Assembly: GCF_000002075.1 (NCBI RefSeq)
Contig: NW_004797466.1
Coordinates: 622,381-686,380, forward strand
Source of the DNA: Aplysia californica
Lineage: Eukaryota
Direction: 5' to 3'
DNA: 64,000 bases
Each line of letters begins with the position of its first letter. Within the stretch, counting starts at the first letter, position 1. A model generated the notes under the pieces. It saw nothing but the letters and a program-made list of their open reading frames with translations, did no database searches and was not told where the DNA came from. Position numbers and translations under genes: made by a program. Shown one piece after another: positions 1-53,100 of the stretch.

Positions 1-35
1 CAGAATCATTATTTTGTATCAACCTTTGTTGAAAG

Positions 36-92
36 ATGGCGGCGTCCACAAACCCAGGAACACAACAGAAAAGTATTGTCACTACAAAACAG
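36..92 (+). CDS. PSMG3: PSMG3 coding exon 1
   Basis: ATG at 36 in aagATGG context; donor CAG|GTTGGT. Confidence 0.85.
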
Positions 93-3000
93 GTTGGTTA
101 GTGGGTGATTTTCAATTATTTGTGGTCAATCTTCTTTTGAATTGACTAATTCGGTAAGGATGGTAGAATCATTGTGAACTGTGCAATACACAAGGGTCTG
201 AATGTCTATAGCCTACTAACTTCTCAGATCTTCCTCGTTCTCGATGACAGTGCCAGTGCTCAGCTAGACAGTCAGTCCGCGGCTAAGTCGCGCACAAACT
301 GTGTAGTTCGCTTCAAATCTGACAGACTGCCTTAGAGCTTTCTTTCAAGGGGAGTCACATTCTGCCACGCCTGTGTACGAAGGGTGGCGTAGCGCAAGCA
401 GTGCTGAAGGATATGGATGGCATCCTCTTGGACCTGTCCACGTTCACAGATCAATCGCTGCGGCGATTGTTAAGATTCCCGCGTTTAATTCCGATGTGCT
501 TTTTTCATACCCTCAGGCATATTTCGCTTTGGTCCCTAACCCTAGGTTAGGGTTAGGGTTAGGGCCAGGGTTAGGGTTAGGGACCAAAGCGAAGTATGCC
601 TGAGGGTATGAAAAACACACATCGGAATTAAACGCGGGAATCTTAACAATCGCCATCGCTGCCTCTCCTACTTTTAATTTGGTGTGCATATGGTATTTTT
701 GAGTCTGTTGTGGCCACAACGGAGTCTAAAGATTGTGACCTGGTCTGCTCTATTTAGTATGTAGATTAGTAGGGGTCAAGTTAGTTGTGTTTAGGGTGGG
801 ACCTTTTCCGTCTGTTTCTCAAGGCAGATTTTATTAGTGTTACTAACTAACTTGTCCTTAAAAGCGACCATTTTAGAGCTGAAATTGATATAGTCTTTTG
901 TGCCTCTCTTTGTTTATGTGTGTATGTGTACGAATTGAAATTGAAAATTACATGTACTGCTGGATCAAAGGCTACTTTAAGTTACCATGACAATTGTTTT
1001 GTTTGTGTGTTTTTGTAGGCAGCTGCTGATATAGCAGGTCATCATACAGAGATTGTAGTTAACAACTTCAAGGACCACTTGTTCATCATAGCCACCCAAT
1101 ATATGAAGCTTGGAACTGTTGTAAGTGGCTTTTTTTCTTTTTGTCTCATTTTGGCACTATATGGTGCTGCTGAATAGAATTTATATAATTATGACACATA
1201 GATTTCTGACCATTGTGTCAAAAGAATTGTACCTATGTTTCCTTTTAGGAGACCATAAAATGCAAGAGGGTGGCCAATTGTCAAACCTCAATATTACTCA
1301 AAGTAACTAACCTCAAGAATCTGTGTCAATGAAATGCCTCATCTAGCTTGAACACTAAGTAATTTAAGTATAAAAATGCTGGCTGGGAGGCTCTGTCCAC
1401 ACTTTAATAGTCAAAGTTACTCAAGAAATATTGAAGACTATTGCCACAACCATGGTGCCTTAGAAAATCACAGAGGACAATTATTCATACAGTACAGTCT
1501 CTCTATAACGACATTGTTGGTATATAGAGAGTTGTCATTATAGAGAGGCAACTAAAATATTACTAAGTGGGTGGTTGGTGGGTGCTCTGGTGTGGTTTGC
1601 TCTTTCTTTTCTTTCTAACATCTATAGTCCTTATCTCCCCTTCTTCTTTTTTATGTTTGTTACTCTCTTGTAACACCTCTAATCTTCTGGCGCTCATATG
1701 ACCTTACNNNNNNNNNNNNNNNNNNNNNNNNNNNNNNNNNNNNNNNNNNNNNNNNNNNNNNNNNNNNNNNNNNNNNNNNNNNNNNNNNNNNNNNNNNNNN
1801 NNNNNNNCTCTCTTGTAACACCTCTAATCATCTGGCACTCATATGACCTTATGCAGTTGCGAGCGCCGTAAAACCTCTACTAAAACAAAACTAAAATATT
1901 ACTATTTATATATAAGGAAAACCATGTCGCTATACAGAGGATGTCGTTATATCGAAGAGGCTGCACTGTATGTGATTCAAGTAATCATAATTCTGTGTCC
2001 CATTTAAAAATACTTTTGTTTATGTGTGGATTTTAGCAAAAAATGTCAATAAAAAACAAACAAAAATGTAAATTTGCACATTTCAAGGATTCTCATGCTT
2101 TGTTGTTTTGTTTAGTATAGGGTTTTACGGCGCTCGCAACTGCATAAGGTCCTATGAGCGCGCGGGACACACCTAATACTTTTTCGTTGGTAGGAAATTT
2201 TGAATTTTGCTCGGGTGGCGGCCGAAGCCTACTCTTATCGATTTTAGACCACCAAGGGATCTTTAACGTGCGCAACTTGCACACGGGCCCTCCGAGATTT
2301 TTCGCCCTTTTCTGAGAAGGCTAGGTGTAGATCTTTCCTACCAGAAGATCAGGGGTGTGGCAGAAAGACAGCAGTTAGGAGGAGCCAAGGAGTAGCAGTA
2401 GAAAGGCTGCAGAAAGAGTCAGGAGCCCAGAGGAGGGGGCAAAGGAGGTGAGGGGGTGGGGGCAGAAAGTGGAAATGAAAGCGGACAACAGAACATTGTT
2501 AGAGATCAGGAAAGGATGTGAAAGGAGACAATTTTAGAGAAAAAATTTTTTTGGTCGCTACCCGGAATCGAACCCGGGACCTTTGAATGAGAGGCCAACA
2601 CCTTAACCTCTAGGCCACGAGAGCCCCCTCTCATGCTTTGGAAGTCATTATATTTTGGCAGCCATTTTATCGTTCTTTTTACCTCTGACACCAGACGATC
2701 CCCCCACCTCCGTCAATTGCAAATGTCTTGACTTCTATTCAAGATAGATGGATATTCTTTCCACCAAAACCAATACAAGTGAACAAGATGATATCATTAA
2801 CTATTAACCCCATGTCCACGAAAATTGTTGTGAGCTGATTCTACCATGTCTTGACACAACTATAAAATTTACATAATTTTAGGTGCAAGTGACACAAGAT
2901 TTGATTGCTGATGAAGTACAAGGAAGCTGCCCCATGTTCTCAACAAATGTTTTGCTTGGAAAGGATGAGGTGAGGTTTCATTATTATTATTTTACATGAA

Positions 3001-4526
3001 CATAATGTATTTTCTTTTTTTATTGCATGTAAATCTATTAACATGTTGCAAGAACCCATTTAGCCGGAGGTTGGAGGGCGCCACTGGTAGGTTCTTCTCC
3101 TTCACTTTCCCTCTGTTGTTTCTGTCTGTCTTACTTTTTCCCAGCACTAAATGACCATTTTGTTTATGTTAAATGATAAATGTATGAAATGAGACTGCGG
3201 ATGAAATGATTCAAAGCACAACAAATTCCTTTTGTCTACCGTTCAATTTTGCTTAATCAGAGATTTCGATGAAAACAAGATTTAACAAACATCATTTTAG
3301 ATCAATAATCCGGTAGGGATATGTGTTAGGTTGCAATGCAGTGTTTACAGCAATTATTGGCTTCATGTTGGGACACCCTTTTTTTATTTTCCCTTTAATC
3401 AACAGTGGTTTGGTTTGAATTGAGACACTTTCTTTTCTTTGGTGTGTGAATGTGTCAGTGTCAGACTAGAGAACAAAAACGACACATCTTAATGCTTGTT
3501 GTGGTAATCCGTATTACTCAATATATAAATAGATCGTTAAACGCAAATTTGCATTATGCTGTTAGACTCTCCTATTTTTCTGAACACAACAGTTTTGCAG
3601 AACAAGCCAACGGCTAAGGTAAGAGCTGGGTATTTGACACTATGGGTCCATGTTTAACATGTTACTATTGTTACTGCCATGGCTGTAGACTTCTATGAAT
3701 ACGATTTATGAACCGACGTCTGTGGTGAAGTGGTTAGGTGCTTTGCCATCACATGCAGAAGACCTGAGTTCGATTATGATAGTGTAAGGGGAATTTTCAT
3801 GACATATCTTGGTCTTTCTGGTGGGACATTGTATCCTTCACTCTCAGTCCTAGTTATTGGCCCTTACAGAGTTGAAGCCAGCCTCCTAAATCTTCTAAAT
3901 TGTGTTGATGGGGCATAAAATATTTTATCTACCCAGTAGTTCTACATCAAAAATTTTATGATGGTGGCATATTTGCACCTCTGTTATCAATGCCCAGCCT
4001 GTTAACCTCCACTCCACCCCGCCCCCCACTTCCCCACCCCTTCACTGAAGAAATTAAAACGGTTGGACTTTTGTCTGTACCCACACAATGTGGGTGTTCT
4101 CTTTGTGTCAGCTTCTTGGACCAATGAACCCTGACCTCCTGAGCCCAAAATAACCTGTTCCCTGGCTTCTGGATGAAAAATATCTACATGGCTACACACC
4201 AAAGTATATATATTCAAATCAATTCCCTTTTTTATCCCTGTATGGACTGCTTGTAGACTAGCATACACTGATGTATCGGTGCTTCGGGGAAGGAGCAGAT
4301 AACCCGCACACTGATATAAATCGGTGTCATGGATTCATTGGGCTAAGTTTTTATTTTCTCTTTCCCCCTTTCTTTCATTTGCCAGCCTCTCACCCATGTG
4401 ATGGCCAAGACAATAGTGGCTGCCCTCAACCCATCGAAGGACGTGATTCTCTCTCTAGCCTTGAAAGACACGACACCAGACACGGTGCACGCCGTGACCG
4501 ACTTGATCAAAACTTGTTTGAGATAG
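36..4526 (+). CDS. PSMG3: Proteasome assembly chaperone 3 (PAC3), 4 coding exons join(36..92,1019..1120,2883..2969,4386..4526), 128 aa
   Basis: Spliced translation MAASTNPGTQQKSIVTTKQ|AAADIAGHHTEIVVNNFKDHLFIIATQYMKLGTV|VQVTQDLIADEVQGSCPMFSTNVLLGKDE|PLTHVMAKTIVAALNPSKDVILSLALKDTTPDTVHAVTDLIKTCLR* matches PSMG3 motifs (TQ.GK.GT, VLLG.DEPL.HV.AK). All three introns are GT-AG, phase 0. Confidence 0.93.
462..654. mobile_element. Foldback MITE: 83-bp TIRs, 8-bp TSD ATCGCTGC, central telomeric TTAGGG repeats
   Basis: 462..544 is the reverse complement of 572..654 (3 mismatches); ATCGCTGC at 454..461 and 655..662; GG...CC termini. Confidence 0.9.
1019..1120 (+). CDS. PSMG3: PSMG3 coding exon 2
   Basis: ttttgtag| acceptor, |gtaagt donor; AAADIAG...YMKLGTV. 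Confidence 0.92.
1490..1968. mobile_element. Tc1/mariner-pogo-like MITE (TA-flanked) interrupted by a SINE
   Basis: TA|CAGTACAGTCTCTCTATAACGAC ... GTCGTTATATCGAAGAGGCTGCACTG|TA imperfect TIRs. Confidence 0.7.
1566..1888 (+). mobile_element. Short retroposon family A (gap-split copy)
   Basis: 16-bp TSD AACTAAAATATTACTA at 1550..1565 and 1889..1904; shared 3' stem-loop tail. Confidence 0.8.
2103..2628 (-). mobile_element. Full-length tRNA(Glu-like)-derived SINE (family C)
   Basis: A box TGGCCTAGAGG, B box GGTTCGATTCC, GCACGTTAAAGATCCC core, shared 3' tail; 12-bp TSD TCTCATGCTTTG at 2091..2102 and 2629..2640. Confidence 0.85.
2883..2969 (+). CDS. PSMG3: PSMG3 coding exon 3
   Basis: ttttag| ... 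|gtgagg; VQVTQ...VLLGKDE. Confidence 0.92.
3718..3920 (+). mobile_element. Degenerate tRNA-derived SINE (family E); also at 7454..7656 and on - strand at about 30578..30775
   Basis: TGGTGAAGTGG A-box-like and GAGTTCGATT B-box-like motifs; colinear homology with the reverse complement of 30578..30775. Confidence 0.6.
4386..4526 (+). CDS. PSMG3: PSMG3 coding exon 4 (terminal)
   Basis: polypyrimidine tract then ccag|; PLTHVMAK...TCLR TAG; AATAAA at about 4960. Confidence 0.92.
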   Translation, partial: PLTHVMAKTIVAALNPSKDVILSLALKDTTPDTVHAVTDLIKTCLR

Positions 4527-4708
4527 AAAGAATTTGTGTGGGCTGAGAAATGTGAATGAAAAAGAGAGGTTTTGAAAGGCTGAAACATGCTTGTGTAGGT
4601 GTGTAAGAGAGAGAGAGAGATGGGGGGGGGGGGGAAGAATGACTCTGAAAATGAGAGAAAAGAGAAAGAGCAGGAAGAGAGAGCATGAGAGAGGGGGAAG
4701 CGAGTGAC

Positions 4709-4751
<43 letters not shown>

Positions 4752-6580
4752 AAGAAAGAGAATGAGAGATAGATGAGATTGTGATTGGGGAGGAGGCGGG
4801 AAGTGCTATGAAAGAGAGATGGTCAGTGTCAATGTTTGAAGTGTGTATTTGGAAGTATGGTGATATTATAAACACAATACACTGAGCAAAAGGTATAAGA
4901 AAGTGCATGTATACACAAATGGAAGTGAATTTTGTTATTGCAACTTTGAATGGCTACTGAATAAAGTTAGTCTAATTTCTTTGCAGTTGTTGTCTTGCTT
5001 TCTGACCATTTGTTCATTTTTGAAAATGACTTAGGAAGGAAGACTTAATAAGAAAGGGACACACCAGCATAAAAAGTCCAGTGTCCTAACAGAGTCTCTA
5101 ATCCAAAAAGGGTTTGTAACACATCTGCATTTTGTATTCCAATGCTTTTGTGAGGCTTGAGGTTTATATTTAAAATGATTATCTACAGGTATAATGTCAT
5201 GATGTTAAGCTTGATGTATATTTTTCAAATGTTTATATCATACATGTACTGGTAAAGGCATCTGTGGTGTAGCGTCTAATGTTTAAGTGAGTTCAGTTCC
5301 TTAGTTCCTATAGGAGAAATATATTTTACCGTGTGTCTCATTGTACGCCTGGCCTCCTCCAAGATGTAAATATGAGTTTGAGGGGAGTTATAACATTGAG
5401 GTCAACTGCAGATTATGTTATATGTGACAAAATTGTGCTGGAGCCACTTTTTTTGTCCGAAAAATGACAACTTGACGTAACATTTTTCATTTTTTTAAAG
5501 AATGTAGGTTGGCTTTCTGATACTTTATCATTTGCAGATCATTTGAGTACTTAAGACAAAAACACTCAAAACAAATTTTTTTTCGATGTATACATGTCTT
5601 GTATTTTCTGTTACTGCATTATATGAATTATAAATACAATCGTACAAGAGAACTCTACTGACAATAATTATGGACGGAGGTAACTAAAAATATTATCACA
5701 GCTGGAATTAGACCATGGGTCTACAAATATAGTGTCTAACAGTATACAGTAATACAATTTAAGGTATTTGATCACTGTTGACCATTTATGGTTTTACCAC
5801 TGCCTCAACAGTACCATACACACGTAGAGGGATACACAAACCATTCCCATACAACACTAAGCATTACATTAACTCACTCACTGTCTGGCACTTTATGGCT
5901 CAACATTCAAAGAATGCCAGGTGTTTTGGCACCAATCTAAAAATAAATAAATCATTGCTACCTTTCTATTTACCACTCAACAAAGAAACTTAGCTTGCAA
6001 AAAGGCAATAAAATTATTGCTACCTTTCTATTTACCACTCAACAAAGAAACTTAGCTTGCAAAAAGGCAATAAAACATACAATAAAATTAAAAAACGGGT
6101 CGTCAGGTAAAAATAATTTGAGTTAATTTGAGATTTTATTTATTTATNNNNNNNNNNNNNNNNNNNNNNNNNNNNNNNNNNNNNNNNNNNNNNNNNNNNN
6201 NNNNNNNNNNNNNNNNNNNNNNNNNNNNNNNNNNNNNNNNNNNNNNNTTTTTGGTCGCTACCCGGAATCGAACCCGGGACCTTTGAATGAGAGGCCAACA
6301 CCTTAACCTCTAGGCCACGAGAGCCCCCTCTCATGCTTTGGAAGTCATTATATTTTGGCAGCCATTTTATCGTTCTTTTTACCTCTGACACCAGACGATC
6401 CCCCCACCTCCGTCAATTGCAAATGTCTTGACTTCTATTCAAGATAGATGGATATTCTTTCCACCAAAACCAATAGAAGTGAACAAGATGATATCATTAA
6501 CCCCATGTCCACGAAAATTGTTGTGAGCTGATTCTACCATGTCTTGACACAATTATAAAATGTAGGCTACATAATTTTAG

Positions 6581-6667
6581 GTGCAAGTGACACGAGATTT
6601 GATTGCTGATGAAGTACAAGGAAGCTGCCCCATGTTCTCAACAAATGTTTTGCTTGGAAAGGATGAG
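6581..6667 (+). CDS. PSMG3: Second copy of PSMG3 exon 3 (probable haplotype/assembly duplicate; Q to R change)
   Basis: Identical to 2883..2969 except CAA to CGA; lies in the duplicated block after a 100-N gap. Confidence 0.6.
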
Positions 6668-8132
6668 GTGAGGTTTCATTATTATTATTTTACATGAACA
6701 TAATGTATTTTCTTTTTTTTATTGCATGTAAATCTATTAACATGTTGCAAGAACCCATTTAGCAGGAGGTTGGAGGGCGCCACTGGTAGGTTCTTCTCCT
6801 TCACTTTCCCTCTGTTGTTTCTGTCTGTCTTACTTTTTCCCAGCACTAAATGACCATTTTGTTTATGTTAAATGATAAATGTATTGTTTATGAAGATAAT
6901 CATAATGACAGACAATATATATATAATATGTGAAATGAGACTGCGGATAAAATGATTAAAAGCACAACAAATCCCTTTGGTCCACCGTTCAATTTTGCTT
7001 AATCAGAGGTTTCAATGAAAGCAAGATTTAACAAACATCATTTTAGATCAATAATCCGGTATTGTTAGGTTGCAATGCAGTGTTTACAGCAGTTATTGGC
7101 TTCATGTTGGGACACCCTTTTTCGATTTTCCTTTTAATCAACAGTGGTTTGGTTTGAATTGAGAGACACTTTCTTTTCTTCGGTGTGTGAATGTGTCAGT
7201 GTCAGACTAGAGAACAAAAACGACACATCTTAATGCTTGTGTTAATCCGTATTTCTCAATATAAATAGATCGTTAAACGCAAATTTGCATTATGTTGTTA
7301 GACTCTCCTATTTTTCTGAACACAACAGTTTTGCAGAACAAGCCAACGGCTAAGGTAAGAGCTGGGTATTTGACACTATGGGTCCATGTTTAACATGTTA
7401 CTATTGTTACTGCCATGGCTGTAGACTTCTATGAATACGATTTATGAACCGACGTCTGTGGTGAAGTGGTTAGGTGCTTTGCCATCACATGCAGAAGACC
7501 TGAGTTCGATAATGATAGTGTAATGGGAATTTTCATCACATATCTTGGTCTTTCTGGTGGGACATTGTATCCTTCTCTCTCAGTCCTAGTTATTGGCCCT
7601 TACAGAGTTGAAGCCAGCCTCCTAAATCTTCTAAATTGTGTTGATGGGGCATAAAATATTTTATCTTCCCAGTAGTTCTACATAAAATTTTTTATGATGG
7701 TGGCATATTTGCACCTCTGTTATCAATGCCCAGCCTGTTAACCTCCACTCCACCCCGCCCCCCACTTCCCCACCCCTTCACTGAAGAAATGAAAATGGTT
7801 GGACTTTTGTCTGTACCCACACATTGTGGGTGTTCTCTTTGTGTCAGCTTCTTGACCCAATGACCAATGAACCCTGACCTCCTGAGCCCAAAATAACCTG
7901 TCCCCTGACTTCCTGGATGAAAAATATCTACATGGCTACACACCAAAGTATATATATTCAAATCAGTTCCCTTTTTTATCCCTGTATGGACTGCTTGTAG
8001 ACTAGCAGCATACACTGATGTATCGGTGCTTCGGGGCAGGAGCAGATAACCCGCACACTGATATAAATCGGTGTCATGGATTCATTGGGTTAAGTTTTTA
8101 TTTCCTCTTTCCCCCTTTCTTTCATTTGCCAG

Positions 8133-8273
8133 CCTCTCACCCATGTGATGGCCAAGACAATAGTGGCTGCCCTCAACCCATCGAAGGACGTGATTCTCTC
8201 TCTAGCCTTGAAAGACACGACACCAGACACGGTGCACGCCGTGACCGACTTGATCAAAACTTGTTTGAGATAG
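8133..8273 (+). CDS. PSMG3: Second copy of PSMG3 exon 4 (probable haplotype/assembly duplicate)
   Basis: Same coding sequence as 4386..4526; no second copy of exons 1-2 visible. Confidence 0.6.
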   Translation, partial: PLTHVMAKTIVAALNPSKDVILSLALKDTTPDTVHAVTDLIKTCLR

Positions 8274-8455
8274 AAAGAATTTGTGTCAGCTGAGAAATGT
8301 GAATGAAAAAGAGAGGTTTTGAAAGGCTGAAACATGCTTGTGTGTGTGTGTAAGAGAGAGAGAGAGATGGGGGGGGGGGGGGAGAATGACTCTGAAAATG
8401 AGAGAAAAGAGAAAGAGCAGGAAGAGAGAGCATGAGAGAGGGGGAAGCGAGTGAC

Positions 8456-8495
<40 letters not shown>

Positions 8496-10582
8496 AGAAA
8501 GAGAGAGAGAGAGAGAGATAGATGAGATTGTGATTGGGGAGGAGGCGGGAAGTGCTATGAAAGAGAGATGGTCAGTGTCAATGTTTGAAGTGTGTATTTG
8601 GAAGTATGGTGATATTATAAACACAATACACTGAGCAAAAGGTATAAGAAAGTGTATGTATACACAAATGGAAGTGAATTTTGTTATTGCAACTTTGAAT
8701 GGCTACTGAATAAAGTTAGTCTAATTTCTTTGCAGTTGTTGTCTTGCTTTCTGACCATTTGTTCATTTTTGAAAATGACTTAGGAAGGAAGACTTAATAA
8801 GAAAGGGACACACCAGCATAAAAAGTCCAGTGTCCTAACAGAGTCTCTAATCCAAAAAGGGTTTGTAGCACATCTGCATTTTGTATTCCAATGCTTTTGT
8901 GAGGCTTGAGGTTTATATTTAAAATGATTATCTACAGGTATAATGTCATGATGTTAAGCTTGATGTATATTTTTCAAATGTTTATATCATACATGTACTG
9001 GTAAAGGCATCTGTGGTGTAGCGTCTAATGTTTAAGTGAGTTCAGTTCCTTAGTTCCTATAGGAGAAATATATTTTACCGTGTGTCTCATTGTACGCCTG
9101 GCCTCCTCCAAGATGTAAATATGAGTTTGAGGGGAGTTATAACATTGAGGTCAACTGCAGATTATGTTATATTTATTTGTGACAAAATTGTGCTGAAGCC
9201 ACTTTTTTTGTCCGAAAAATGACAACTTGACGTAACATTTTTCATTTTTTAAAAGAATGTAGGTTGGCTTTCTGATACTTTATCATTTGCAGATCATTTG
9301 AGTACTTAAGACAAAAACACTCAAAACAAATTTTTTTTCGATATGTATACATGTCTTGTATTTTCTGTTACTGCATTATATGAATTATAAATACAATCAT
9401 ACAAGAGAACTCTACTGACAATAATTATGGACGGAGGTAACTAAAAATATTATCACAGCTGGAATTAGACCATGGGTCTACAAATATAGTGTCTAACAGT
9501 ATACAGTAATACAATGTAAGGTATTTGATCACTGTTGACCATTTATGGTTTTACCACTGCCTCAACAGTACAATACACACGTAGAGGGATACACAAACCA
9601 TTCCCATACAACACTAAGCATTACATTAACTCACTCACCGTCTGGCACTTTATGGCTCAACATTCAAAAAATGCCAGGTGTTTTGGCACCTATCTAAAAA
9701 AAATAAAATTATTGCTACCTTTCTATTTACCACTCAACAAAGAAACTTAGCTTGCAAAAAGGCAATAAAACATACTGCACAATGCAAATAAAATTGTTAA
9801 GATACCTATGGTTATTTTTTAATAATGTTTTGCAAATTATCAAAATAAATTTTTTTAAACGTTTAAAAAATCATGTTCAGTGTCACTAATCCAAACAGCC
9901 TTCCACTACCTCTACTAAACTCTGGACCTTGTGTTTCGGGTCGTCAGGTAAAAATAATTTGAGTTAATTTGAGATTTTATTTAGTTATCAAGGCATGCAA
10001 CTCAAACACTACTCAATCAACTCATACTCATAAAGGACAGCAGTTACAAACCCATAAAGACCAGCCCTGAAACACATAAGGTAATAGTAGATAAAAAAAG
10101 TAAACTTGAAACCAAAGTGTTTCGGTAACAGCTGTACCCAGTCTATTGACTTTTCCCAAATTATTTTGGGTGTGGCAGCGAACAAGTTAATTCTCAGACT
10201 TCTTTAAATTCAAAAAGGTAATGTCGACTTTCATTGTGATCACTGGTAAAAAAACAGTTTAGCACTCTTAATGAAACAACAATACATTTTTATGGCATTA
10301 GAGTAGAAGTCAATATAGAGAATTTGCCATTACCACACAAGAATTGGTCTCTAGATTAACTTGAAGGACGTTTGAACAATTTAAATAATATTCATCATGA
10401 ACTGTACAAATATTTTCAGTTCAGAGCTGCCCTCCTACTTCTTTAGCGCTTATCTACATAGTTTGCTGTTAGGACCTTGTGCTATCTACACTGTAAAAAG
10501 TGAAAGCTAATTGACAGAAAATATGCAGACAAAACAAAAGTTCTGGTAGTAACAGTAAGGCAGTGACAAAGTTCTGGGAAAA

Positions 10583-10771: not shown

Positions 10772-13700
10772 CTAGAGGAGGACCAGACACAACAAGCATG
10801 TACAGACCATGTGGAAAAGGGGATGTTTCATCGTTTTATCAAGTGTTTTACGGCACTTGCAACACAATAAGGTCATATAAGTGCCGAAGATTAGAGGTGT
10901 TACAAGAGAGTAACAAACACAAAAAAGAAGGAGGGGAGATATATGGATGATGAATGTTTTGATTGGAAAGAAGGAGCAAACTGTAAACAACATCAAAGCT
11001 CCCACAAATGATGAGGTATGGGGGAGGTGTTATAATAGTTATAATATAATAAAATCATAAATAATGCTGATGATTTCCATAGCACCCACTCCCATACACA
11101 ATGCAGCTTTGCGTGCTTTACCAAAACTTCATCTAAATACGAAGTACAAATGAATGAATATGATGCATACATTACACTGATTAGAATAACGTAAAAACAA
11201 AAGTGCGGTACTATGAATTTGAACAAGAAGGACTAACTATCAAGATGGCATTTCATAAAGGTATGTTTTTAAATGAATTTTACATTGTGATGCATACCAC
11301 CATACAGATTGCATTTATTTACATGCAGTCTAAAACACCAAGCGAAATTAACCCTAAGCTTTAGGCATGGCATTAGTAGTTTTGGCTCAAGTCTGATCAG
11401 TGAAATTCCAAGTGGTCCTTGCCATTGGTTCAGGGTGGTACAACTTGCCCCTTTTTACTTTCTCCTCAGCTTACGGGCAAGGATGCACCATTTTCAAAGA
11501 GAGGCTAGATGCCTGAGAGAAAAAATACACTTAAACCAGTGCCAGTAGCGAAAAATTTGAAAAATTCTTTTAACACACTATTAGTATATCAGTTCTCCTG
11601 TCTCCCCCCCCCCTTTTTTTTTCTAAGCACACTAAACACTACACATAGAGAAATAGTAATTTATTTGAAGTCTACCTTGTAGGATTTGAAAGAGTCCTCC
11701 AGATCTTTCAGATGAGATTCATCAATCGGTTTTCCACAGTTCTCCTCCAGTCTGAGGGAAAAAAAAATTCTTTGTGGTACAAAAAAGGCATCATTAGTCC
11801 TGAAAATTGCACATTTTATTTTTCATGTTTCATGGCTTTGAAATGATACATTTTGCTCTTGTGCCAGGAGAGACAGACAATGGAATATGTCCTCAGTTCC
11901 TGTAAGGTAGGCTATCCCTTGCTGATGGCAGGTGCACATGGCGGCACAACAGAGTGCGTGAAAAAGCTGGTCCTCCCAATTCTTTGCAGTCTGGAGACCG
12001 ACACCGACAGCAGACTAGCCCCAGTCCAGGTATTCTCCACAGCAGGGACGAATAAGAAATGGGTTGGAAGAAAGCAAGTGCCTTCCTTCTCAAGGACAGA
12101 GTAAAAACTCTTTAGGATCCGCAAAGGATTGGGAACTAGCTGCAGATCTCTCGGAGTGGCGAAAGTGCCATCCCATGATCAAGAGAACAGGTCTTAAACC
12201 AGATTTGTTCCCTGGTCAGAAACTGATGTCAAGATCTTCCAAATTGAGATGGCAGTTCCATACGAAAGTAAGATAAATGCACAACATCAGTTCAAGCTGG
12301 CAGAATATGAAGAACACTCAAATTAACTTCAAGGAGAGGGTTCCAGCTCCAAGATCATGCCAGTAGAAGTGGGTGCACAAGGGTTTGTTGCAGCCTCAAC
12401 ATTCACACTTCTGGGGCAACTAGGTCTTAAAGGCTGGGAAAAAAGGTAGCCAGCAAGCGCATTTCAATATGGCAGAGAAAAGTTCGAGCTGGCAGTGGAC
12501 GATGAAACAGAATGAAAGTTGAGCCGCAGAAATGGAACAAGAAATAGATATAGAAATTCCACAAAAAGTCTAGTAGATTCATATAGCTTTGAATTTGCTA
12601 TTTCCACTAGAAACTTCGTGGCATTGCGCAAACATTCATGGACTGAAGAACCAGAGATGCCCCAAAACCACTAGGGTTCCCCGACAAGCGCCAAAGTAAA
12701 AAGAAAAAAAAAAAGCAGGAGAGCACTTGGGAGTCATGACCTGAGTGTGGCCCGGCCCCCTTAGGGTGTAGGGTAGTTCAGGCCAAAACACTCTCTTGAA
12801 TTAAGTTGAAGGGGGTTCTTCCTCTGAAGATCTTTTGCAGTCCGCTCGCCCAATGAGTTTTCTCTCAATTCACCATTATGAGAAATTTGGTGATAGAAGA
12901 GAGGAAAATTAATGAAATGACAAACTAACAAAAAATTCTGACATGTGCTTTTGTGCACATATTTGATTTCAGGAGAATCAGATCACCTACATAATCAAAG
13001 AACCTGTCTGGAAAAAAAACAACTAAAGCATAAAAGTGTGCAGTTCTAGCAAAACATGACCCATCACATGCCACAAAAGTGTCAGCATCAACAGTACAAT
13101 TTTGAATTCAACATAAATCAGGCAAAAATTCATCAACAAATAACAAGAATAAACGATTTAGCATTGGATTTTTCTCTTTGAAATATGCATAACACTAAAC
13201 CTTTTCAAGGCTTTCCAGTGACTTGACTTGGTATGTTAGAGATGGATATTGAATTCAGATATCCTGCCTCTTTAATAACCACAGACTTCCTGTAAAGGCA
13301 TTAAACCCACCATATCAAGCCAACACTTTCATGCTGAGCATGCACTTGGTGTGGGGAAGGGCAAAGGTAGCATGCACTGAGCTTGAACCTGTAGGGTGAA
13401 TCAAAATGACTAGTGTACATTATTATAATTTATTTAAGTCCCCTAAATATCATCACTAAGACTAAGACTCACATGGGCAGAAGTTTCCTCATGATCTGGG
13501 TGCAATGTCTGTTCCAGCGTGTGATGTAGCGACTCCTCCACTCCATGATCTTGTTCTTGAGCAGTTGTTCTATCCTCTCCTGTAGCTCCATCACAAGGCT
13601 GTTGAATTTTTTGTCCTTGCGTCGATAGTGAAGCTCACTGGGCTGTAGGCAGAACACAGACACAGCTATAATAACATTGAACATATGTATCACATACCGG

Positions 13701-22700: not shown

Positions 22701-25700
22701 GAGTCTCTCTCTCTGTTGTCCTGAGGAAAACAAGATTATAAAATTGTTTAAATGGTAAAGCACGTGGGATGCTCAATGTTAAAAACAATCAGGAAACGAC
22801 AAATGCAATTTTTGGGACACCTGAATAATAATAATAATAATAATAGATAGCATTTGTATAGCGCATATCCCCGCTCAACAGCAGGCTCTATGCGCTTTAC
22901 ACTATATTATTACCCCAGCAGACCATAGAACACTCCGAAACATTCTCAGCTTCCCGGGAAGCATACAGTGCGAGCAGCCGATTAAGCGCTCAAACACTAA
23001 CAAACTGACAAGATCTTTCGCTGTCTATAGCCGGGTACCCATTCCCACCTGGGTGAAGTGAGGAAAATTCGTGTAAAGTGCCTTTCCCAAGGACACAACG
23101 TCGGGCCCCTGACGGGATTCGAACCCACGACCTTACGGTTGCGAGTCCGAGAGCCTAAAATGAGGGTCTTGAACATCTAGCTCTCACTGGCAAAATTGAA
23201 GGCAAACAAGGCAGGGGTAGACCCAGAACAATCTACTTGGGAAACCTAAACAAATGGGCAACAGGGAAAAATCAGGGAAACATAGCTTTTTTGAGAGCAT
23301 CCGAGTAAAGGAATGAATGGAGAACCATGATCGCCGATGTCTGTCGCAGATCTGGCACTGGATAATGATGAAAGCACATTACGTGCAGCTTGCTGATAGA
23401 CATTTCAGCATGAAGAAAACTTTACTTTTTATTTCATTAAAAAACTTTAAAGACCAAAAACCTTCCATTAACATAACCAACCCACACCATAATGTACCAC
23501 CCATATTAAAAAATAGGAAGAGGTAACTATACAGTATATACCATAGCTGACAAACACTGATGGACTCAGCGAAAACTATTACTGCTTATGTGCTTGACTT
23601 TAGAACAAATTACTATTCATTTTGTAGTTTTTATTGAGTCTATCAATGCTTACATGTTGCAGAAAGATTGGCCTTCTCCTACCAGCATCATCTGCACTAC
23701 CATTATGTTCCCTTGTTATACCTCTGTACTTTTGACAGCCCGACAGTCCCTGGAACTTAATGTCAGTAATCATGTTGATGTGTTTCTCTTTCACTAATAA
23801 ACCACTTTAAGGAAAAGGGAATTATAATATCCAGTGCCTACTGCAAAAATTGCCATTAAATCCTCGTTTAATATGGTTTGATCCACTTAAGAGCAGCCAG
23901 ATTTTCCTTCATGGAGGGGCAAACGCTAGTATTTTGGAACAATTCAATCCAGTCTTCCAAAACCAAACACATTTGACTTTTTAGGTTACGACAGGGTGCA
24001 TTTGATGAAAACTGGCCAACAACCAGATGGTCAGTAAGAGTCACATGAAAATGCACATTCAGATCTTCCATTTGTGCAATGAATGGGTCCTGATTGATAA
24101 CCTGGTCAAATTAAATGAAGCAAAACAGACGTCTATTTGATAGAGTGGGCACTGACAAGCACAATTGTCTATCCCAACCCGATCAGTTCACGAAGATGCA
24201 GCTCTGTTTGCCCATTGCACACATCCATTCTTACCTCCAAAACATCCACGGTGACCTCGTCAAACACGTTGAGGTAAATGACATCATCAATAGCTTGCAG
24301 AGCCGACGGGGAGTAGTCATCGTTAGGCACCCTGATGGGAGACAAAACCATATGTAACAGCTGCGACAAACAATAAAGGGAAGACACACACTGTAAGAAC
24401 AGTCACCACGAACAAATAAGGGGGGAGAACCAATAGAACTAAAAACCTATCAGTCACGGTCTGGGCAAATGAGAGACTGCTGATGTCGGTGCATAAGAAA
24501 ATCCAGAAATGGAGGCAAACAAGATAAGGCAGCTTCTCTGGTGTTAGGTAGGTAAGAGTTGCTGTACTTGTGTTGGAAATAATCTGTATCAGCTTTAGTT
24601 TTTCAATAGAGCTTATTTTCCTTTTGTGTAGAAAAAGAGGAAATTCTTTACAGCAAGGGGTTCTTTATGGGGTGTTTTTGAGTAAAAGTACACGTAAGCA
24701 TGTTTTTTTCCCCCTGAAAAATTAAAAATTATTCAGCACTCAGTTGTTTTGAGATATTGGGAAAAAACCTTGAGCTTCTCAAGAATGTGTAAATAGCTCC
24801 TTAACTTCAAGTGACAAATATTTTGGAACAACAGCTGCTTGAGAAAAATTATCTTCACCCTTTTGTAGGGCTAAAGCAAATCTTTCAGTTGATACCCACA
24901 TTGTATTATTGTCATGCAACATGTGACTCATTTTATTGTGTTGCTACACATATATATATATCTCCTAGTCTTACTTGAGAGTCAACTCCAACTCCTCGTT
25001 AAAGCTCGGGTTGACACCTTCTGCTCGCCTTGTACGAGTTCGAGACCGCTGGAACATGACTTCCACATAAGGACAGACCGACTCCTGTTAAGGATAAAAC
25101 ACATGGAGATATTGTGGAAAAACATGGAGATATTGTGGAAAAACTTGGGGATTTGTCCTGGTCAAAGCACGATTTCCTCGTCAAATCTTTAGTTTCTAGT
25201 TACTGGTAATGTAGAAAAGCCTGTTATTTGTTTCATATTCTCAATATACAGGGATTTTGTTTAAATAATTGAGCATCTTTCAGTTTGCAAAAGTCTTGAG
25301 AACCACTTAAGTAAACACTGTTTTTCTATGTCTTCTCTAATTGACAAAAATGGCAAAGGAAATTAAGCTCAAACACAGCTTCTCTGAAAACAGCAATAAA
25401 CCGAAAGAAAATAATATCCCCAATTTTTTTCTTTCTGAAAACCCTGCTAAACAGAAAAAAATCCAGTGGTCCAGCAAATTTCAGTTTCAGCAGACTCTAC
25501 CGTATAACAGTTGAGACCAAAAAAATGAGAACAATACCAGATGAGTGCTTCATGCTCTTTTACACCTACATGACCACCTCAAACAAAAAAACCAAAGTCA
25601 AACCATCAAATGTCCCCCACATTAACAAAATCAAAGATTGATGGCCTTTCCAACAATGACAGTATAAGAACATGACAAGATGGGAAAAAAATGTAATTTG

Positions 25701-37700: not shown

Positions 37701-40700
37701 GTGGGCAGTGGCTCGGGCACATCCCTTTATGACAACTTTGATATCAAATTACTTTTTGGCAACTGCTGAAAACAGGTCTCTTACTGGGAGTTCATTCATT
37801 AGAAGAACTATTGAAATAGGTTCACTTGTTTTGATTTAATGAATAATTTAGTGATGTATATGTAAATTTTATATTTCGTACCATAAGAGGGCCCTGGCAC
37901 AGTGGGTTTACCCCCCTTGGAGATAAAGAGTTAATCCTGCTCACAAATAGAGATAGACAAAGCTCTTGACGATAACTCTTTGAAGGACACACCTGCACCT
38001 GAAGGGTGTTAAACTCAAACCAAAACCAAATCAAAGGAAACTCAGTTTTCAGTTGAACGTACCTTGAGCACTGACTGGATGGTGTAACTGTTGCCGTGTT
38101 GGACATCTCTGGAAACAGTTTAGCCTCACCTGGTCAACAAACATGAGGCATTTGTAAATGACTGTTTCGTCCTCACTGTAAGGGCCCTTGCCTATTTCCT
38201 TCTGTTCATATAGCCACATATGAGAAGTTAGTAAAGTTGAACCCTCTCTAAGGGCTACCAGTCAAAGACAATCACCTGTACAAATAACCAATTCCTGCTT
38301 CCCCCCTCACATTTTTCTTTACATTATAATGACACTGTTCAAAATATCTCCCTGTTGAAGACAACCACTTTTCTCCTTGACAATGGGTAACTGTCTTGGA
38401 CAATTTTGACTTTTCTCGGGAATTGGAAGACACAGAATATGTAAATGACAACAGTACAGTGTTCCTCGCCATAGAACTGGCCACTGGGACCACCAGGAGG
38501 CCTAAAATATTTTGCTCATATTGGGTTTTCAAGGAGGAAGTTAAGGGTCACCACAAAGCTTCTACTGGTTGCCACCCTTGTTGGTTCATAGCAATGATCA
38601 TACATAACAAGACAGTCCACTCAGCCAACAAAGTGTCTGCCGGAAGTCCGCGCAACGGCTCAGATGGCGCTGAAGTCTTTGTTTTGAAGCTCTCTTTTGT
38701 TTCTCAAGAAGAAGAATAGGAATAGCAGCTCCTTGCGTGCGCAGATCGACTGCTGTTCATCAGCAGTTCGGGTTCGTTCAGTGAGGAGTATTAGGGTTTT
38801 AAAAAATTTTAATGACCTCTCGCATCTCATTCTAAAGTCAAATTAAATGAAGAAAGCAGTCGCCTATTCCTCCGGAAGGGGTTTTTTGTCAACGTAACGA
38901 TGTAAAAAAGCGTTCTTCCGAAATTTGAATTCTGATTTATAAAAAAAACTTGTTAGTTTCACTTTGATTTTTTCCACACAGGTAGGGTAACTCTGTTCGC
39001 AAAGGGTGCGCATTTGTGAGGAAGGCGCCATCGAATTTTGAGGACATTTTTTTAATTGGCTAAAAGAGAGGAGTAGACCATCTTGTTATGTATGATCATT
39101 GTTCATAGTTGAAATATGACCTGCAGGTGATTCTTATGTGCTTTGGTGGGTTTCTTTTAACATAATGGGTAGAGCAGATGAAAACAACTTTATGACAGAC
39201 CAAACCACTTCTGCAGAGCTCATAGGTGGGCCTGTTCCGCTGTGCATGCTCACGGAGATTTTGCCATACTCCCACTCCCCTTTTTTCACCCTATTTCCTT
39301 TATTTATCACTAGTTAACATCATGCACAACAGTTACAGCATCATATTGCTTCTTCTGGTGATATGCTTGAAATGTGTGAAATGAGCAGGCTGAACAAGGG
39401 AGGTAATAGTGAACTATAAAAAAAGCGATGCAAAAAAAAATCTTATAAACTCTACAAATCTCTTCCAGTCTTCATGATATTCACGGCTTGGGCAACTTGA
39501 GTTCATACAATTCTTGAAAATAGTTTTTATTCAATCCATCAGCCGTAAGAAGTCAATGAGGGGCGGAATATTGTGGCAGCAATTAATGGGTTTTTTTCCA
39601 CCAGTAGTTTAGGGAAGAAAGCAGGCAAATGACTGCCATGGAACCAAACATCAACTACCTGACAGATATCTCTATTTGTCTGGTCATGTGTTTAGTCTGA
39701 ATTTTTCAGGATCCTTTTTATAAGCATAAATGGTAAGAAATTTGGAACCATTCATACTGCCGTCTTATGACAAAAAAAACGTATACATGCGTAATTAGGA
39801 AAAGTAGTATTTTTTATAGGGGAGAAACCTCTTTTCATTGCGCATCTTTCTATCTTGGTTTTATGGCTGTACAATTAAAATTAAGGAAGCTTTGAACGCG
39901 TTATGACCTTATTAGATATCAATATTGTTACAATACAAGGAATTTCAATCAGTTACTCCGTAACTATTTACGTTACACACAAAAAGTTAGGTTTTTGCCT
40001 CTCTTGTAAAATTTTATTTTTGTAATATTCGTTTTTTTGTCATAAAACGGCAGCATAGGTGTGTTTAGTCCATTACACAGAAAATATTTCCGTGATCTGG
40101 ATACACTATACAAAGCAAAATTGGTAAAAGTAAAGTATAACCTCACATGTCTTCATGCATCACGACAATCACAGCCCCCTATTTCCTTTTCCTATTAGAC
40201 ATAGTTGCAACCTAATTGCGACCTCCTCAGGGACCCCAGATGATGCACAAAATGGTCAAACAGTTCAAAATGGGAGGGCTATACTGTCCTTTGCCCGCAA
40301 AATTCATACATAGGGCACCAAGAACACCCTACCTGGGCGTCGCTTGGCAGCCATAGCTTTCGCCTTGATCTGTTCTCTTACTGCTCTCTCATCGAATGCC
40401 TCTGGAGGCTCGGGCTTTGGCAGAGGTTCTTCGTCAATGATGTCTTGGTCTTTGGCGTTTTCTTCCTGATAGACATAGATCAGAGGACTTGTTGTGTACC
40501 TTACAGATGAGCAATTACACAAGCTATTGTAGATGCCATACATTTCTTAGTAAATGTGCAGCCTTTACCCAATTTTAACAATAGAGTAACTCCTGCAACA
40601 ATAGCTTTCAAAATGTGTACATTAATTGACATCAGATACTGATGAAATTTTGCGTCTTTTCAAATAATTTATACATTAGAAAAAGCTTTTCTACAAGGCA

Positions 40701-43700: not shown

Positions 43701-46700
43701 TATTTTAGTTTAGTTTTCTTGCGTGCACCAGCTGTCGACTATCATACAAATGGAACATTTATAGCTGTTTAACTGCTGAAATTAACCGACAGACCTCATG
43801 TTCGTGTGTATAAATGCATCATCCGAGTTGATTCACATCTGTTCAATTCTTTACGTAACAACTTACATATTCTACTGAGCCAAATACGACAAATAGGGCA
43901 AGGACCATCATGTTTCATTCCCTTATGACAGCTGCCAACCAATGATGATGTTTTTAATATTCACTGCTTTTTGTCAAGAGCCCAATGTTCTTTTGAGCAC
44001 TATTTGTAAGTGATTCTACCATAACATTAATACTTCCTGTGCTGTTTATTGTTCTGTCCCACATGTTTCTTACTGTCTTTATTTTTTTTTAAAAACAACA
44101 GAAAAAAGGGAGTAGGCTCATGCAGTGGTGAAGTCTGTCCTTCTGTAGTTATCTCAAGGATTCTACCAACCTGATTTCACACTTGTAATCCCGTAGCCTT
44201 CTTTCATAATTGTCACGGTCTGCCACCGACATCTCACCCTAAGGAAAACAAAACAACGTTCACTTTAGACCTGAGAAGCCACCAACTAGTTCTTTTATCT
44301 CCCAGCCAGGGTTGGTGATTTTTTTGATTTTTAAAATAAAAATTTTAAAAATCGATTTTTTAAATTTAAATCAGATTTTTTAAATTTAAATCGGATTTTT
44401 TTTATTTAAAAAAAAATGCCGACTCAGTTTGGGATTTTTGGTGGCTAAAAGTAAGTTCTTTTAGTGCAAAATGCATTGTCTTTAATTTAACTAATGATTA
44501 ATTTAAGCAACTGCAATTTTAGAAAGCCTTAATCTGCTATATCAGTGAATTATGGCTACAGAAAAAAAATGAAGAAAATGTCAGTCTAAAAGGAAGGAGG
44601 GGGGAGGGGGTAATTATGCATAGATAAACTTGCATTTTATCACAGTGTGTGTGTGCACGCGCGCTTGTGTTTGTATAAAAAGAAAAAGAAAAAGCTAATT
44701 TCAATTATGAAAAAAGAGTAAATTGAATACAGTAATTATTTTACTACTTACAGTGACAGGGGTGAAAGCAGACTTTTAAGCATGATTTTTTAGTCTACTA
44801 AACCTTATATCTGTTTTATAAAACCAAGGAAAGGAATTCTGACTGTTTAAAGATGTAAAAACAGAATACATTTTTTAAAGTGATTTAAATCACTGAGTTT
44901 TATTTTTTAAATAAAGTTGATTAAAATTTTTTTTTAATCAACTAAATCAACCCAACCCTGGTTTTCAATTATGAAAAAAAAGTAAATTGAGAACTTAAAT
45001 GAGAACTGTATTATTTTACAGTGACAGGGGGGAAAGCAGACTTTTAAGCATGATTATATTAGTCTACTAAACCTTATATCTGTTTAATAAAACCAAGGAA
45101 AGGAATTCTGAATGTTTAAATATATGTAAAAGCTGAATACATTTTTTGAAAAGTGATTTAAATCACAGATTTAAAAAAAAAAATCAAGTTGATAAAATTT
45201 AAAAAATCAACTGATTTAAATCAAACCAGCTCTGATTTCCATGAAAAAAAAAGTAAATTGAATACTGTATTATTTTACAGTGAAAGGGGGGAAAGCAGAC
45301 TTTTAAGCATGATTATATTAGTCTACTAAACCTTATATCTGTTTAATAAAACCAAGGAAAGGAATTCTGAATGTTTAAATATATGTAAAAGCTGAATACA
45401 TTTTTTGAAAAGTGATTTAAATCACAGATTTAAAAAAAAAAATCAAGTTGATAAAATTTAAAAAATCAACTGATTTAAATCAAACCAGCTCTGATTTCCA
45501 TGAAAAAAAAAGTAAATTGAATACTGTATTATTTTACAGTGAAAGGGGGGAAAGCAGACTTTTAAGCATGATTATATTAGTCTACTAAACCTTATATCTG
45601 TTTTATGAAACCAAGGAAAGGAATTTTGAATGTTGAAATGTGTAAAAACTGAATAAAAATACATTTTTTTAAAAGTGATTTAAATTACTGATTTTTATTT
45701 TAAAAATCAAGTTGATTTAAATAAAAAAAATCAATTGATTTAAATCAACCTGATTTAAATCAACCCAACCCTGCTCCCAGCAGCACTCCTTTAGAGACCA
45801 AGGGCACAAATTAACACCCAAGCATAATTACACTTCAAAATAAACCAGTCAAACTCTTTGTACTATCTAATTTACCTTTTCTAAACCTTTACTTCCAAAC
45901 TAAAAGTGAATACATTCTTTTTTTTATCTGTGAGGTAGACATTTACTAGAAATAGAATTGTTCCAATCTTAGCGATGGACATGTTTTTCTGGAAAACACT
46001 GTCAGCAGCTATATCCCTTGTTGGTCAGCCAACCAGAGCTAAGGTACTGACCCTTTTGACATGAACAGGCAACACTAAATGCTTCAAGTCATGTACTTGT
46101 ATTATATTCAGAACAGTTCAAAATTTAACCCTTTTTACCTCACTGCAAAAGAGCTATGGTTCGCCAAATGTTTTCTCTTGCCACATAGAGCACAGTTAAT
46201 TGTGAAGTAAGTCATCTGCCCCCTGTTTATCCCTGCTCCTCAATAAATTGACTGCTTAATTTACAACTCGACCATCAGACATTTTGAAAAGAAATAAGAC
46301 GGAGTCTTACACTGAACAGTCAAAATGATCTTTAACTTAAAGACAGAAACTAAACAACGTGTAATACCATTTTCCTACAACTAGCCTTTGTGCAGAGTAT
46401 AAACTTAAAATAACCGTCTTATGTTCATGCTCCTGGTTTCACAAAAAATCTTCTTGTTAAAAAAAACACATCAGCAAAGAAATGAGAACATAATTGATGC
46501 TCTAGAAAAAGCTATCTTTGGATCATAACATTACCTTGTGTGCGGCTATGTAGTCATGGAGGAGGGCTGCAGAGTTCTTCAAAGCTGCCAGCTGAAAGAG
46601 AAATGTAATAATTAAATAATAATAGATTCATTTGTATAGCACAAATTCCCGCTCAACAGCAAGCTCTATGCACTTTACAATCAATACTATTATCCAAGGA

Positions 46701-50112: not shown

Positions 50113-53100
50113 AGAGAAAGGAGTATGGCGAGGTGGACAAATAAAGACAAAGAGAGAGAGAAAGGTGGAGAAGCAGGGAGAAAAGAAAAGAAAACAAGAG
50201 AGGGTAAGGGGGGGGGGGGGGGTAAAGCAAGAAATAAAGCAAGAAAAAGAAAGCAAAATAGGGGGAATTTCTAGGACACCAAAGCGAAATATAACATTGC
50301 CTACCCCCCCCCCCCCCCCTCTCCTTATTTTCTACAAGAAACAGAGTCACTGACCTGTTTCAAGTGCTCTGCTTCCTTGAGGAGTCTGCTCTCCATCCTG
50401 TTCTTGTTCCTGTCAGCCACGTATGGTTTCTCGCCCACATAAAATCCTTCGTCTTCCAGGAATCTCGGCTCGAGCTCCTCCCCCACAACCGCAGACGCTG
50501 GTTCTAAAAAAACAAAACAAAAAGGGAAAGTGGGAAAGTTAACATCAAATAAATATGAATAACCATTGCTCAAGTGCGTTGGGCGGGAGCTTAGAGCCCA
50601 ATAACATAATAAGAAAAATATCATACTAATAAAAACAATAATGACCGTGCTTATGAAGAAAAGTCTAGTTTTAGTTTTAATAAGGTTTTACGACATTTGA
50701 AACACTATTAGGTTCGAAAAATGCAGAAGATTAGACATTTACTAGAAAGTAACATATTGAATGAAAAGAATAATAAAAATAATAAATGACAACAATATGT
50801 GATCATGACAATAAAATGACAATAATAATACTAATAATGATAATACTAATAATAACAATAATAGTAGTAGTAGTAGCAGTAATAATAACAATAATAATTA
50901 CAACATAAGCAATAGTAATAAAAATATAGCAATAACCAAAATAGTAAAAATAATATATCAGTAACACAATACCATTGATCAAAACTATAACACTAAAAAT
51001 AATGATAACACTGCTAATGGTACTAATAATGCTTCTAATAGTAATGATAAAAATAATAGTAATAACTATGTGTGCAAAGATCCTCCGACCAACAGGTCTG
51101 CAAAAGCTTTTTTTTCTTTATCAAACTTAAACCAGAAGCTAAATGCCACGGCAGGAATAACAATAGGAAGTATTCTTTAAAAGCATTTTTTTAATTTAAA
51201 AAAAAAACTGAATGTGTTAAGACAGTAGCACAGCACAACTACGCATGGGGGCCTCCTTACGTTTGGCACTTGAGGGATGGAATAACATTTCCTGCTCAGC
51301 CTTCTCGATGATCGCTGGCTCCATCATATAGGCTTTGCGCACCGCTGTAGGGCCATAACCTTCCTCAGTGTAGTCAGCGTCATCCAGAAGTTTGGCAAGC
51401 TCTGTGAAAAGGAGCAGAGATACAGAATATGAAGTGAGGAGTACTCTATAAGTGTCACTGCAAGTAAATGGGAGAATAACTTCCCATATGGGCAATAAAG
51501 CTACATTCTTATTCTCTTTTTTTTTTTTCCAAGTTCTTAAGTAGGCGTGGGGAAACTACAGGCCACAGGCCAGATCTGGCTCATGAAAAATTTCAGTATA
51601 TCCCGCAAGTCGACCCAGTAATTGATATAATAATGAATGTGGCTCACTATGAGTTGGTGAATTAATCAAATTAAAACAGTCCCTTTAGAAAATTTAAATC
51701 AGTAGCTTCCAGTGGGCTGGAAGCACTAGATCTAATAATACTAATATTTTATCTCATGAAATGCCTTTGAGTGACATATACTACAGTATCAATTTTGATA
51801 GTCTTTTTAGAGTTTGGATATTTTGACTGCTTTTACCCAGTTGTCTCCTGCTTTGGCGCGTGAGGTATTTGGAATGGCTTAACCTGGCCCATGACTTGGG
51901 ACAGGTTTGAGTATGCCTACTTTAACCCTTTGAACTCTGACCTCTTGAGGCTACTGTGCCCCTCTGTCCGAGCTCCTGAGCGATTCACGCCTACATTACT
52001 CTCACATTTATATCATCATCAGAACCCCATTCCAAATCCCACTAAGGGTAGAAGATCTAGTCCTCATCGTTACCAGCACCTAATTCAGAAAGGTCTTCGA
52101 TATAATCAATAATATACTTTGTAGCAAACACTCCGTGCGTGTTTTGTTCCAGACGAACCGGGTTGGAAATAAGGCCTCGCTCACTGGTGGACCAGTGGTT
52201 AGGCATACAGGCAATTTTAAGTGCCATTGGTGTTAGTTTTAGTATGGTTTTACGGCGCTCGTAACTGCATAAGGTTATATGAGCGCCAAGGGGTGGATGT
52301 CAACAGAGAAGTCCTTACAGGGAATCAGGCTTACTCTACTCAACTCTCTAGCTTCAACAGCATAAAGTCTACTTCGACTATCAAGGCACCCCGGAAATAG
52401 CGGGTCACAACAGTGTGACAAACATACAAAAGAAGTAGAGGAAAATGACGATAGTAAGGATTAGGAAAAAAAAAGCAGCAGTGCCCTGTTGCAGTTCAGG
52501 CACAGTTATGAGCATGACATTGATAAATCAGCTTATTTACAATTCTACTGTGCATAAGAACATGTTAATGTCCCCCCCCCCCTTCCCCTTTGGGAATGGC
52601 CTAAAGACACTTCAGTCAGTAGCACCATCCCGGGGGTTAAACGGTGGTAAGGGCTCAAAGAGTCAAAGTAAAATGCAACCATACGAAACAGAAAACACAA
52701 ACAGTAACAGCTAGCCAGCCCCTTACACAACCCCCCCTTAAGGTTGTCACCATCAATACTGTTTGGAATATATGTGAAGAACCCTCACAGGACACTTGAC
52801 TACTGAATCCCCCATCACAAAGACAAAATCTTAACTAGAATTACTCTATACTGCTAATCAACCACTTTTTTCCTTCTTAGTACAACAAATTAGAATAAAC
52901 TTTTTCTGATTTACAACCCCAGCCTTATCTCAACCTGCATATATTTTCATTTGAGTGAAATGAAGGAAGAAATAAACACAAAGCTGATGGTGGAAGAGTG
53001 GAGAAATATCATGTCATTTACCTCCTTTGTCTTCTTCTTTTGCAGCTCTTTCCTCTTCCTGATAGAAACAAAAATTTAAAAACAATATCTAATAATACAG

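Follow-up and report, generated by a model that had tools for sequence, protein, structure and literature searches.

The 193-bp fold-back element at 462-654 of the window (the whole stretch of Aplysia californica DNA that was analysed, 64 kb) is very probably a transposed, non-autonomous cut-and-paste DNA transposon (MITE). It lies in an intron of PSMG3, and its long arms meet at a core of telomere-type repeats. The best explanation as a whole, which is judged probable rather than secure, is a MITE driven by a Merlin transposase, with a core that was derived from subterminal arrays of its parent by internal deletion.

Structure of the element and its host intron

The dimensions given in the first-pass annotation (193-bp element, 83-bp arms with three mismatches, 8-bp target-site duplication (TSD), GG..CC ends) were all reproduced by recounting (Table 1). 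The arms are complementary at 80 of 83 positions, the mismatched pairs being 499/617, 500/616 and 522/594; the last of these becomes a G-U pair in the sense RNA, which results in stems of 37 and 44 bp. Flanking repeats were sought at k=2-14, and an exact one was found at k=8 only. GGG tracts start at 550, 556, 562, 568, 574 and 580, and CCC tracts at 534 and 540; the earlier count of six GGG tracts, two of them paired with the left arm and four left in the loop, was correct (four in the spacer 545-571). A perfect TTAGGG register fits the G-run 545-582 at 36 of 38 positions, and the junction of the C-array and the G-array consists of a shared TA followed by a unit with two G.

MITEs range from 0.05 to 1 kb and are marked by shortness, inverted ends, lack of coding sequence and an abutting duplication (PMC8969392). 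At 193 bp the element falls within this range and is non-coding (no Pfam match for either of the two ORFs of at least 72 aa that overlap it); its terminal inverted repeats (TIRs; 80/83) and the exact 8-bp TSD abutting its ends complete the set. An assembly artefact was considered as well and is ruled out by the N-free sequence (first gap at 1708), the three arm differences and the TSD.

The host gene was identified as PSMG3 by the Pfam PAC3 match of its last exon together with exon-by-exon protein identity: the four exons match 127 of 128 residues of the 128-aa A. californica proteasome assembly chaperone 3, and exon 4386-4523 matches this protein at 100%. Searched singly, exons 1-3 gave no PAC3 match in Pfam (the frame of the exon 1 query was off by one base); a PDB search with exon 3 was negative, as was an Atlas search with exon 2. 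The database protein is labelled isoform X1, so another isoform may exist. With the ATG at 36 and the donor at 93, the element lies mid-intron, with 370 nt between it and exon 1 and 365 nt between it and the acceptor at 1019, and its G-run is on the PSMG3 sense strand; the location, the G-strand sense and the distance of about 370 bp past the first donor had thus been annotated correctly. "Intron 1" here denotes the first intron after the start codon; the window starts 35 nt before the ATG, and an upstream non-coding exon is possible. From the gene model, we infer that PSMG3 transcription runs through the element. Two AG positions in the left arm (514-516 and 543-545), with 15 pyrimidines in the preceding 20 nt, are possible cryptic splice acceptors, and an ATTAAA hexamer is located at 627.

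Table 1. Coordinates of the fold-back element and of the PSMG3 exons in the window.
Feature	Position	Strand	Remarks
PSMG3 (PAC3) first coding exon, residues 1-19	36..92	+	19/19 identical
Host intron, GT..AG, holds the element	93..1018	+	gene model
Left TSD copy	454..461	+	8 bp, exact
Left arm, 83-bp TIR, GG start	462..544	+	two C-strand telomere-type tracts in last 11 nt (534-544)
Telomere-type core	534..582	+	C-array, then G-array (5 perfect TTAGGG units and 1 variant)
Unpaired spacer, 27 nt	545..571	+	four GGG tracts at 550-570; predicted G-quadruplex (sense RNA or single-stranded DNA)
Right arm, 83 bp, CC end	572..654	+	two G-strand tracts in first 11 nt; 3 mismatches versus left arm
Right TSD copy	655..662	+	identical to 454-461
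PSMG3 exon 2, residues 20-53	1019..1120	+	34/34; weak match to PDB 2z5e PAC3, E 0.037
PSMG3 exon 3, residues 54-82	2883..2969	+	28/29
PSMG3 last coding exon, residues 83-128	4386..4526	+	46/46; Pfam PAC3 E 2.6e-6, above cut-off

Transposition and the driving superfamily

Folding of the element gave z = -22.8 for RNA and -21.9 for DNA, and none of 200 shuffles was equally stable; the C-array/G-array pattern was found once in the 64-kb window and in 0 of 100 shuffles. As a background for the TSD, an exact flanking direct repeat of 7-10 nt was present at 1026 of 2,651,810 sampled position pairs (3.9e-4), and the iid chance of the element's own 8-mer is 7e-6. In a window-wide scan for TIRs combined with TSDs, the element ranked first among 17 rows; most of the remaining rows were nested artefacts or weak, and one was a second element (38592-39101). 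The flanks of the fold-back element are unrepeated elsewhere in the 64-kb window.

A one-off scar of double-strand-break repair, in which telomeric repeats were combined, in an immobile insert, with captured DNA duplicated in inverted form and with a duplicated target site, would agree with the lone copy found in the window. In the horse, 3 of 66 loci with interstitial telomeric insertions have target duplications, and 3 of 66 have inversions (PMC7215372). The left flank also resembles an element end: 452-458 copies seven of the last eight nucleotides of the element and forms a small hairpin with the left terminus. This resemblance (expected about 8e-4 within 12 nt, a post hoc figure) could be due to chance, to target preference or to a repair trace; plain random insertion does not explain it. 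However, such a scar would need several rare events together, the 8-bp duplication exactly abuts the GG..CC ends, and a clean duplication beyond which the sequence is unrelated would presumably not result from local template switching; a repair scar was therefore regarded as very improbable, and insertion of a MITE was retained.

That the element is young is a possibility based on only the perfect TSD and the three arm differences. CpG richness was discarded as an age signal: the observed/expected ratio is 1.5 in the arm versus 0.40 in the window, yet the adjacent 201-460 is equally CpG-rich, and the signal is weak.

When the element and its arm were compared with the window by blastn, they matched themselves and, in addition, 15 nt at 50278-50292 (E 0.036, taken as chance), and the terminal 13-mer with up to two mismatches matched the window twice, at the element's own ends. 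MITE families typically comprise several scattered copies of uniform size; one copy was found in these 64 kb. No match was obtained by blastn in the plasmid and phage collections. A scan of GTDB for the C-array/G-array pattern gave 12 loci; their arms were all short (extension of 12 nt or less), and none of them resembled the arm of the element (best E 0.097). The lack of relatives in GTDB, plasmids and phages is expected for an animal element and is uninformative. The GTDB loci (L001-L012, around 601-650) are short bacterial palindromes with telomere-looking arms, terminator- or REP-like; they are unrelated to the element and show that the motif pair arises independently. Telomere-like centres occur in fish non-autonomous GG-ended elements and in nematode inverted repeats. 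A literature search that covered few subscription journals and no Repbase Reports returned no molluscan MITE with a TTAGGG core, which is weak evidence of novelty; Aplysia repeats are already partly catalogued.

Merlin elements are defined by 5'-GG ends, TSDs of 8-9 bp and TIRs of 24-462 bp (PMC8101967). All three of these testable features were found here (5'-GG termini, an 8-bp TSD at one insertion, an 83-bp TIR), which supports the previous attribution of the GG termini and the 8-bp TSD to Merlin. A. californica has six proteins with DDE_Tnp_IS1595 (S1 Appendix, PMC8101967) and is the source of Merlin-1_Aplcal, so a Merlin-type enzyme is present in the host. Judged from the ends, the TSD and the TIR length, the driver was probably a Merlin (IS1016/IS1595-type DDE) transposase of Aplysia, acting in trans. 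Within the window, none of the 145 ORFs of at least 72 aa matched a transposase family.

Fold-backs of the Mutator type have G-starting ends and long arms that meet at a short spacer, as in this element, although a length of 9 bp is the commonest for their TSDs; (C/T)A is the start of hAT and P ends, whereas the ends observed here are GG..CC. The same kind of MITE could have had another driver, either MuDR/Mutator or, less likely, Zisupton, hAT or P. The superfamily of a non-autonomous element is assigned only through matching termini (PMC4455052); under the Repbase membership rule, positions 1-11 are shared with an autonomous element, with one mismatch allowed. TSDs in the MuDR group range from 4 to 10 bp (PMC10045372), a range that includes 8 bp and is not discriminating. 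Merlin is not alone in having GG ends together with an 8-bp TSD, and MuDR is a less likely candidate; exactly 8 bp together with GG..CC is nevertheless the stated Merlin signature (PMC8101967), and Merlins exist in the host. A driver other than Merlin was accordingly considered unlikely.

Origin of the telomere-type core

Both arms read CCCTAA inward, and the C-array precedes the G-array, a layout as if the opposite ends of a linear chromosome had been placed side by side. Molluscan telomeres use TTAGGG, and telomerase adds the G-strand to 3' ends; the polarity is wrong for healing or end-to-end fusion, because the G-array would then come first. Neither a single orientation nor a G-array followed by a C-array, the arrangements of healed or fused interstitial telomeres, was found. 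Given the C-strand-inward repeats in both arms, the symmetric tracts there must be older than any telomerase addition. Inheritance of the core from subterminal arrays of the parent is thus more likely than its synthesis by telomerase healing.

The first-pass annotation had suggested that the repeats were possibly made when telomerase healed a broken element; the inward CCCTAA of both arms speaks against this as the source of the arm repeats. If telomerase had healed a broken transposon, and the family had then spread the resulting core, the 36/38 identity to TTAGGG in the G-run and the left arm, which ends with TA in register with the repeat, would be accounted for; in-register ends are typical of mammalian telomerase-type insertions (PMC7215372), and the loop units alone could be additions. 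The repeats in both arms nevertheless run in the reverse of the orientation expected from healing, the junction unit has two G instead of three, and one unit is a variant; a healing origin was rated as quite improbable. Short interstitial telomeric sequences at DNA breaks (PMC7215372) likewise hold a few internal TTAGGG units and sometimes a target duplication. They are single-orientation inserts or head-to-head fusions, whereas the repeats described here are symmetric parts of long inverted arms, with the C-array first.

According to the favoured explanation by internal deletion, the parent would have been longer and would have carried an array of telomere-type hexamers immediately internal to each end, with the C-strand reading inward. 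MITEs can arise when an internal deletion removes all but the TIRs (PMC8969392), and a deletion that joined both arrays at a shared TA would have left two C-tracts facing six G-tracts, the four-tract loop being the unpaired remainder of a longer right-hand array. The transposase would then have bound the outer ends, excised the element elsewhere and inserted it in the PSMG3 intron with an 8-nt stagger. The insertion may have been tolerated by removal with the intron during splicing.

Several Merlin elements offer points of comparison, all from PMC8101967. The non-autonomous Merlin-N and Merlin1m elements (Feschotte 2004, via this source) have GG ends, an 8-bp TSD and the TIR range in common with the element, and internal tandem repeats are common among Merlin non-autonomous elements; the element differs by its TTAGGG core, for which no literature description was found, and by its one copy here. 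Merlin-1_Aplcal (Repbase), also from A. californica, contains a 39.5-copy period-6 array (2231-2475) downstream of its transposase-matching region (792-1610) and is the only entry with a period-6 array among the S1 Table feature rows listed. It differs in being autonomous and over 2.4 kb long; its tie to the element is a lead only, the array unit being unstated and the TIR listed as NA. Merlin Sy.m_F1 of the dinoflagellate Symbiodinium microadriaticum, which is active, has GG ends, an 8-bp TSD and C-rich hexamers followed by their G-rich complement, as found here, and is a layout precedent within Merlin for fold-back hexamer arrays. Its hexamer is of the CCAAAA type, not a telomere unit, and its fold-back is subterminal, near the 5' end of a 2.57-kb coding element. 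In Ptychodera flava (S2 Appendix), a 12-nt double TTAGGG with at least 36 occurrences lies about 340 bp (estimate) inside a multi-copy family with a sharp GG start (at least 77 occurrences), of which at least three contigs encode DDE_Tnp_IS1595; this motif comprises two TTAGGG units only, in the 5' region, and has the opposite polarity, its G-strand reading inward. Symbiodinium contigs in the Merlin supplement also contain telomere-like tracts, which were dropped as evidence, their placement inside elements not being established. The element may further be likened to the insect GTCY MITEs and Xenopus Xstir (PMC6947457), in which a MITE carries a simple repeat of a different unit.

As a lone intronic MITE, the element matters little and has the look of an ordinary passenger; its chief point of interest is a potential to carry telomere-like DNA to internal chromosomal sites. 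If the element belongs to a spreading family, each copy would be datable through its TSD and empty allele, and the calling of telomeres in Aplysia assemblies and by FISH would be affected. A more far-reaching proposal, which we consider improbable, is a Merlin lineage that bears the host telomere repeat in chromosome-end-like subterminal arrays, recruits telomere-binding proteins to pair or shield its ends during transposition, and seeds interstitial telomeric sequence through its MITEs. If this were true, telomere-carrying Merlin MITEs would account for a large part of the short interstitial telomeric sequence in Aplysia, each insertion being marked by its TSD, loop sizes would be held where a quadruplex-capped hairpin persists, and TERRA-like intronic RNA would extend across many genes.

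Predicted quadruplex-capped hairpin and other features of the window

The loop on the long stem had been described as quadruplex-capable, and the folding model agrees: with quadruplexes allowed, ViennaRNA placed one at 550-570 on an intact stem, with predicted energies of -168.3 versus -157.7 kcal/mol for the element alone and -382.0 versus -371.4 kcal/mol for the whole intron. The gain of about 10.6 kcal/mol in either case comes from a quadruplex model that ignores sterics and ions. Where the outer tracts were used instead, part of the stem was lost and the score was worse; without the quadruplex, the loop was partly self-paired. The quadruplex potential is on the sense strand only, formation on the antisense strand being impossible. 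On its two strands, the window contains 11 canonical quadruplex motifs, so the motif alone is not rare, and "exactly four" tracts is six minus two in a single copy, to which any significance is attached post hoc.

This lower modelled energy could be taken as a sign that PSMG3 is tuned by a selected regulatory RNA or DNA structure, either a miRNA-like precursor or a hairpin with a quadruplex cap, and in Caenorhabditis an association with small RNAs and repressive chromatin has been described for telomere-like tracts within introns (PMC6800518). Such a stem, however, forms in any MITE, the energy stems from a model without sterics or ions, and the Rfam matches are generic hairpins below the gathering score (best 58.2 versus 93 bits; 0 of 7 matches in 1-3000 reached the threshold). 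Selection for a regulatory role was consequently regarded as extremely unlikely. In line with the preferred reading as a MITE, the pre-mRNA would contain a long stem, possibly quadruplex-capped, as a by-product without selected function. The element would offer a natural duplex-quadruplex hybrid for biophysics.

The second TIR element (38592-39101; 510 bp) has inverted ends of about 31-34 bp that start with CA and an exact 7-bp duplication; it is a single copy in the window, with one 33-nt internal match at 24105-24137, and its ends and TSD look P-element-like. A dispersed repeat family with at least six copies of a 44-nt core was located at 1834-1886, 2118-2161, 10833-10885, 14259, 52243 and 56080, two copies being inverted and 245 nt apart. 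ARAGORN reported 0 genes; a weak tRNA-like segment at 2556-2624 suggests that these repeats are SINEs. An AT-rich 259-bp minisatellite (3.8 copies) extends over 44748-45748.

Near-identical duplications (95-100%) flank N gaps at 2548-6100 versus 6248-9800, 34207 versus 34838 and 61317 versus 63346, a pattern that probably reflects tandem assembly of the two haplotypes. In the window, two copies of the last PSMG3 exon are present, at 4386 and 8133. A multi-exon CC2D2A gene runs on the minus strand from about 13000 to 64000, convergent with PSMG3; its exon at 47692-47880 matches CC2D2A of heterobranch snails.
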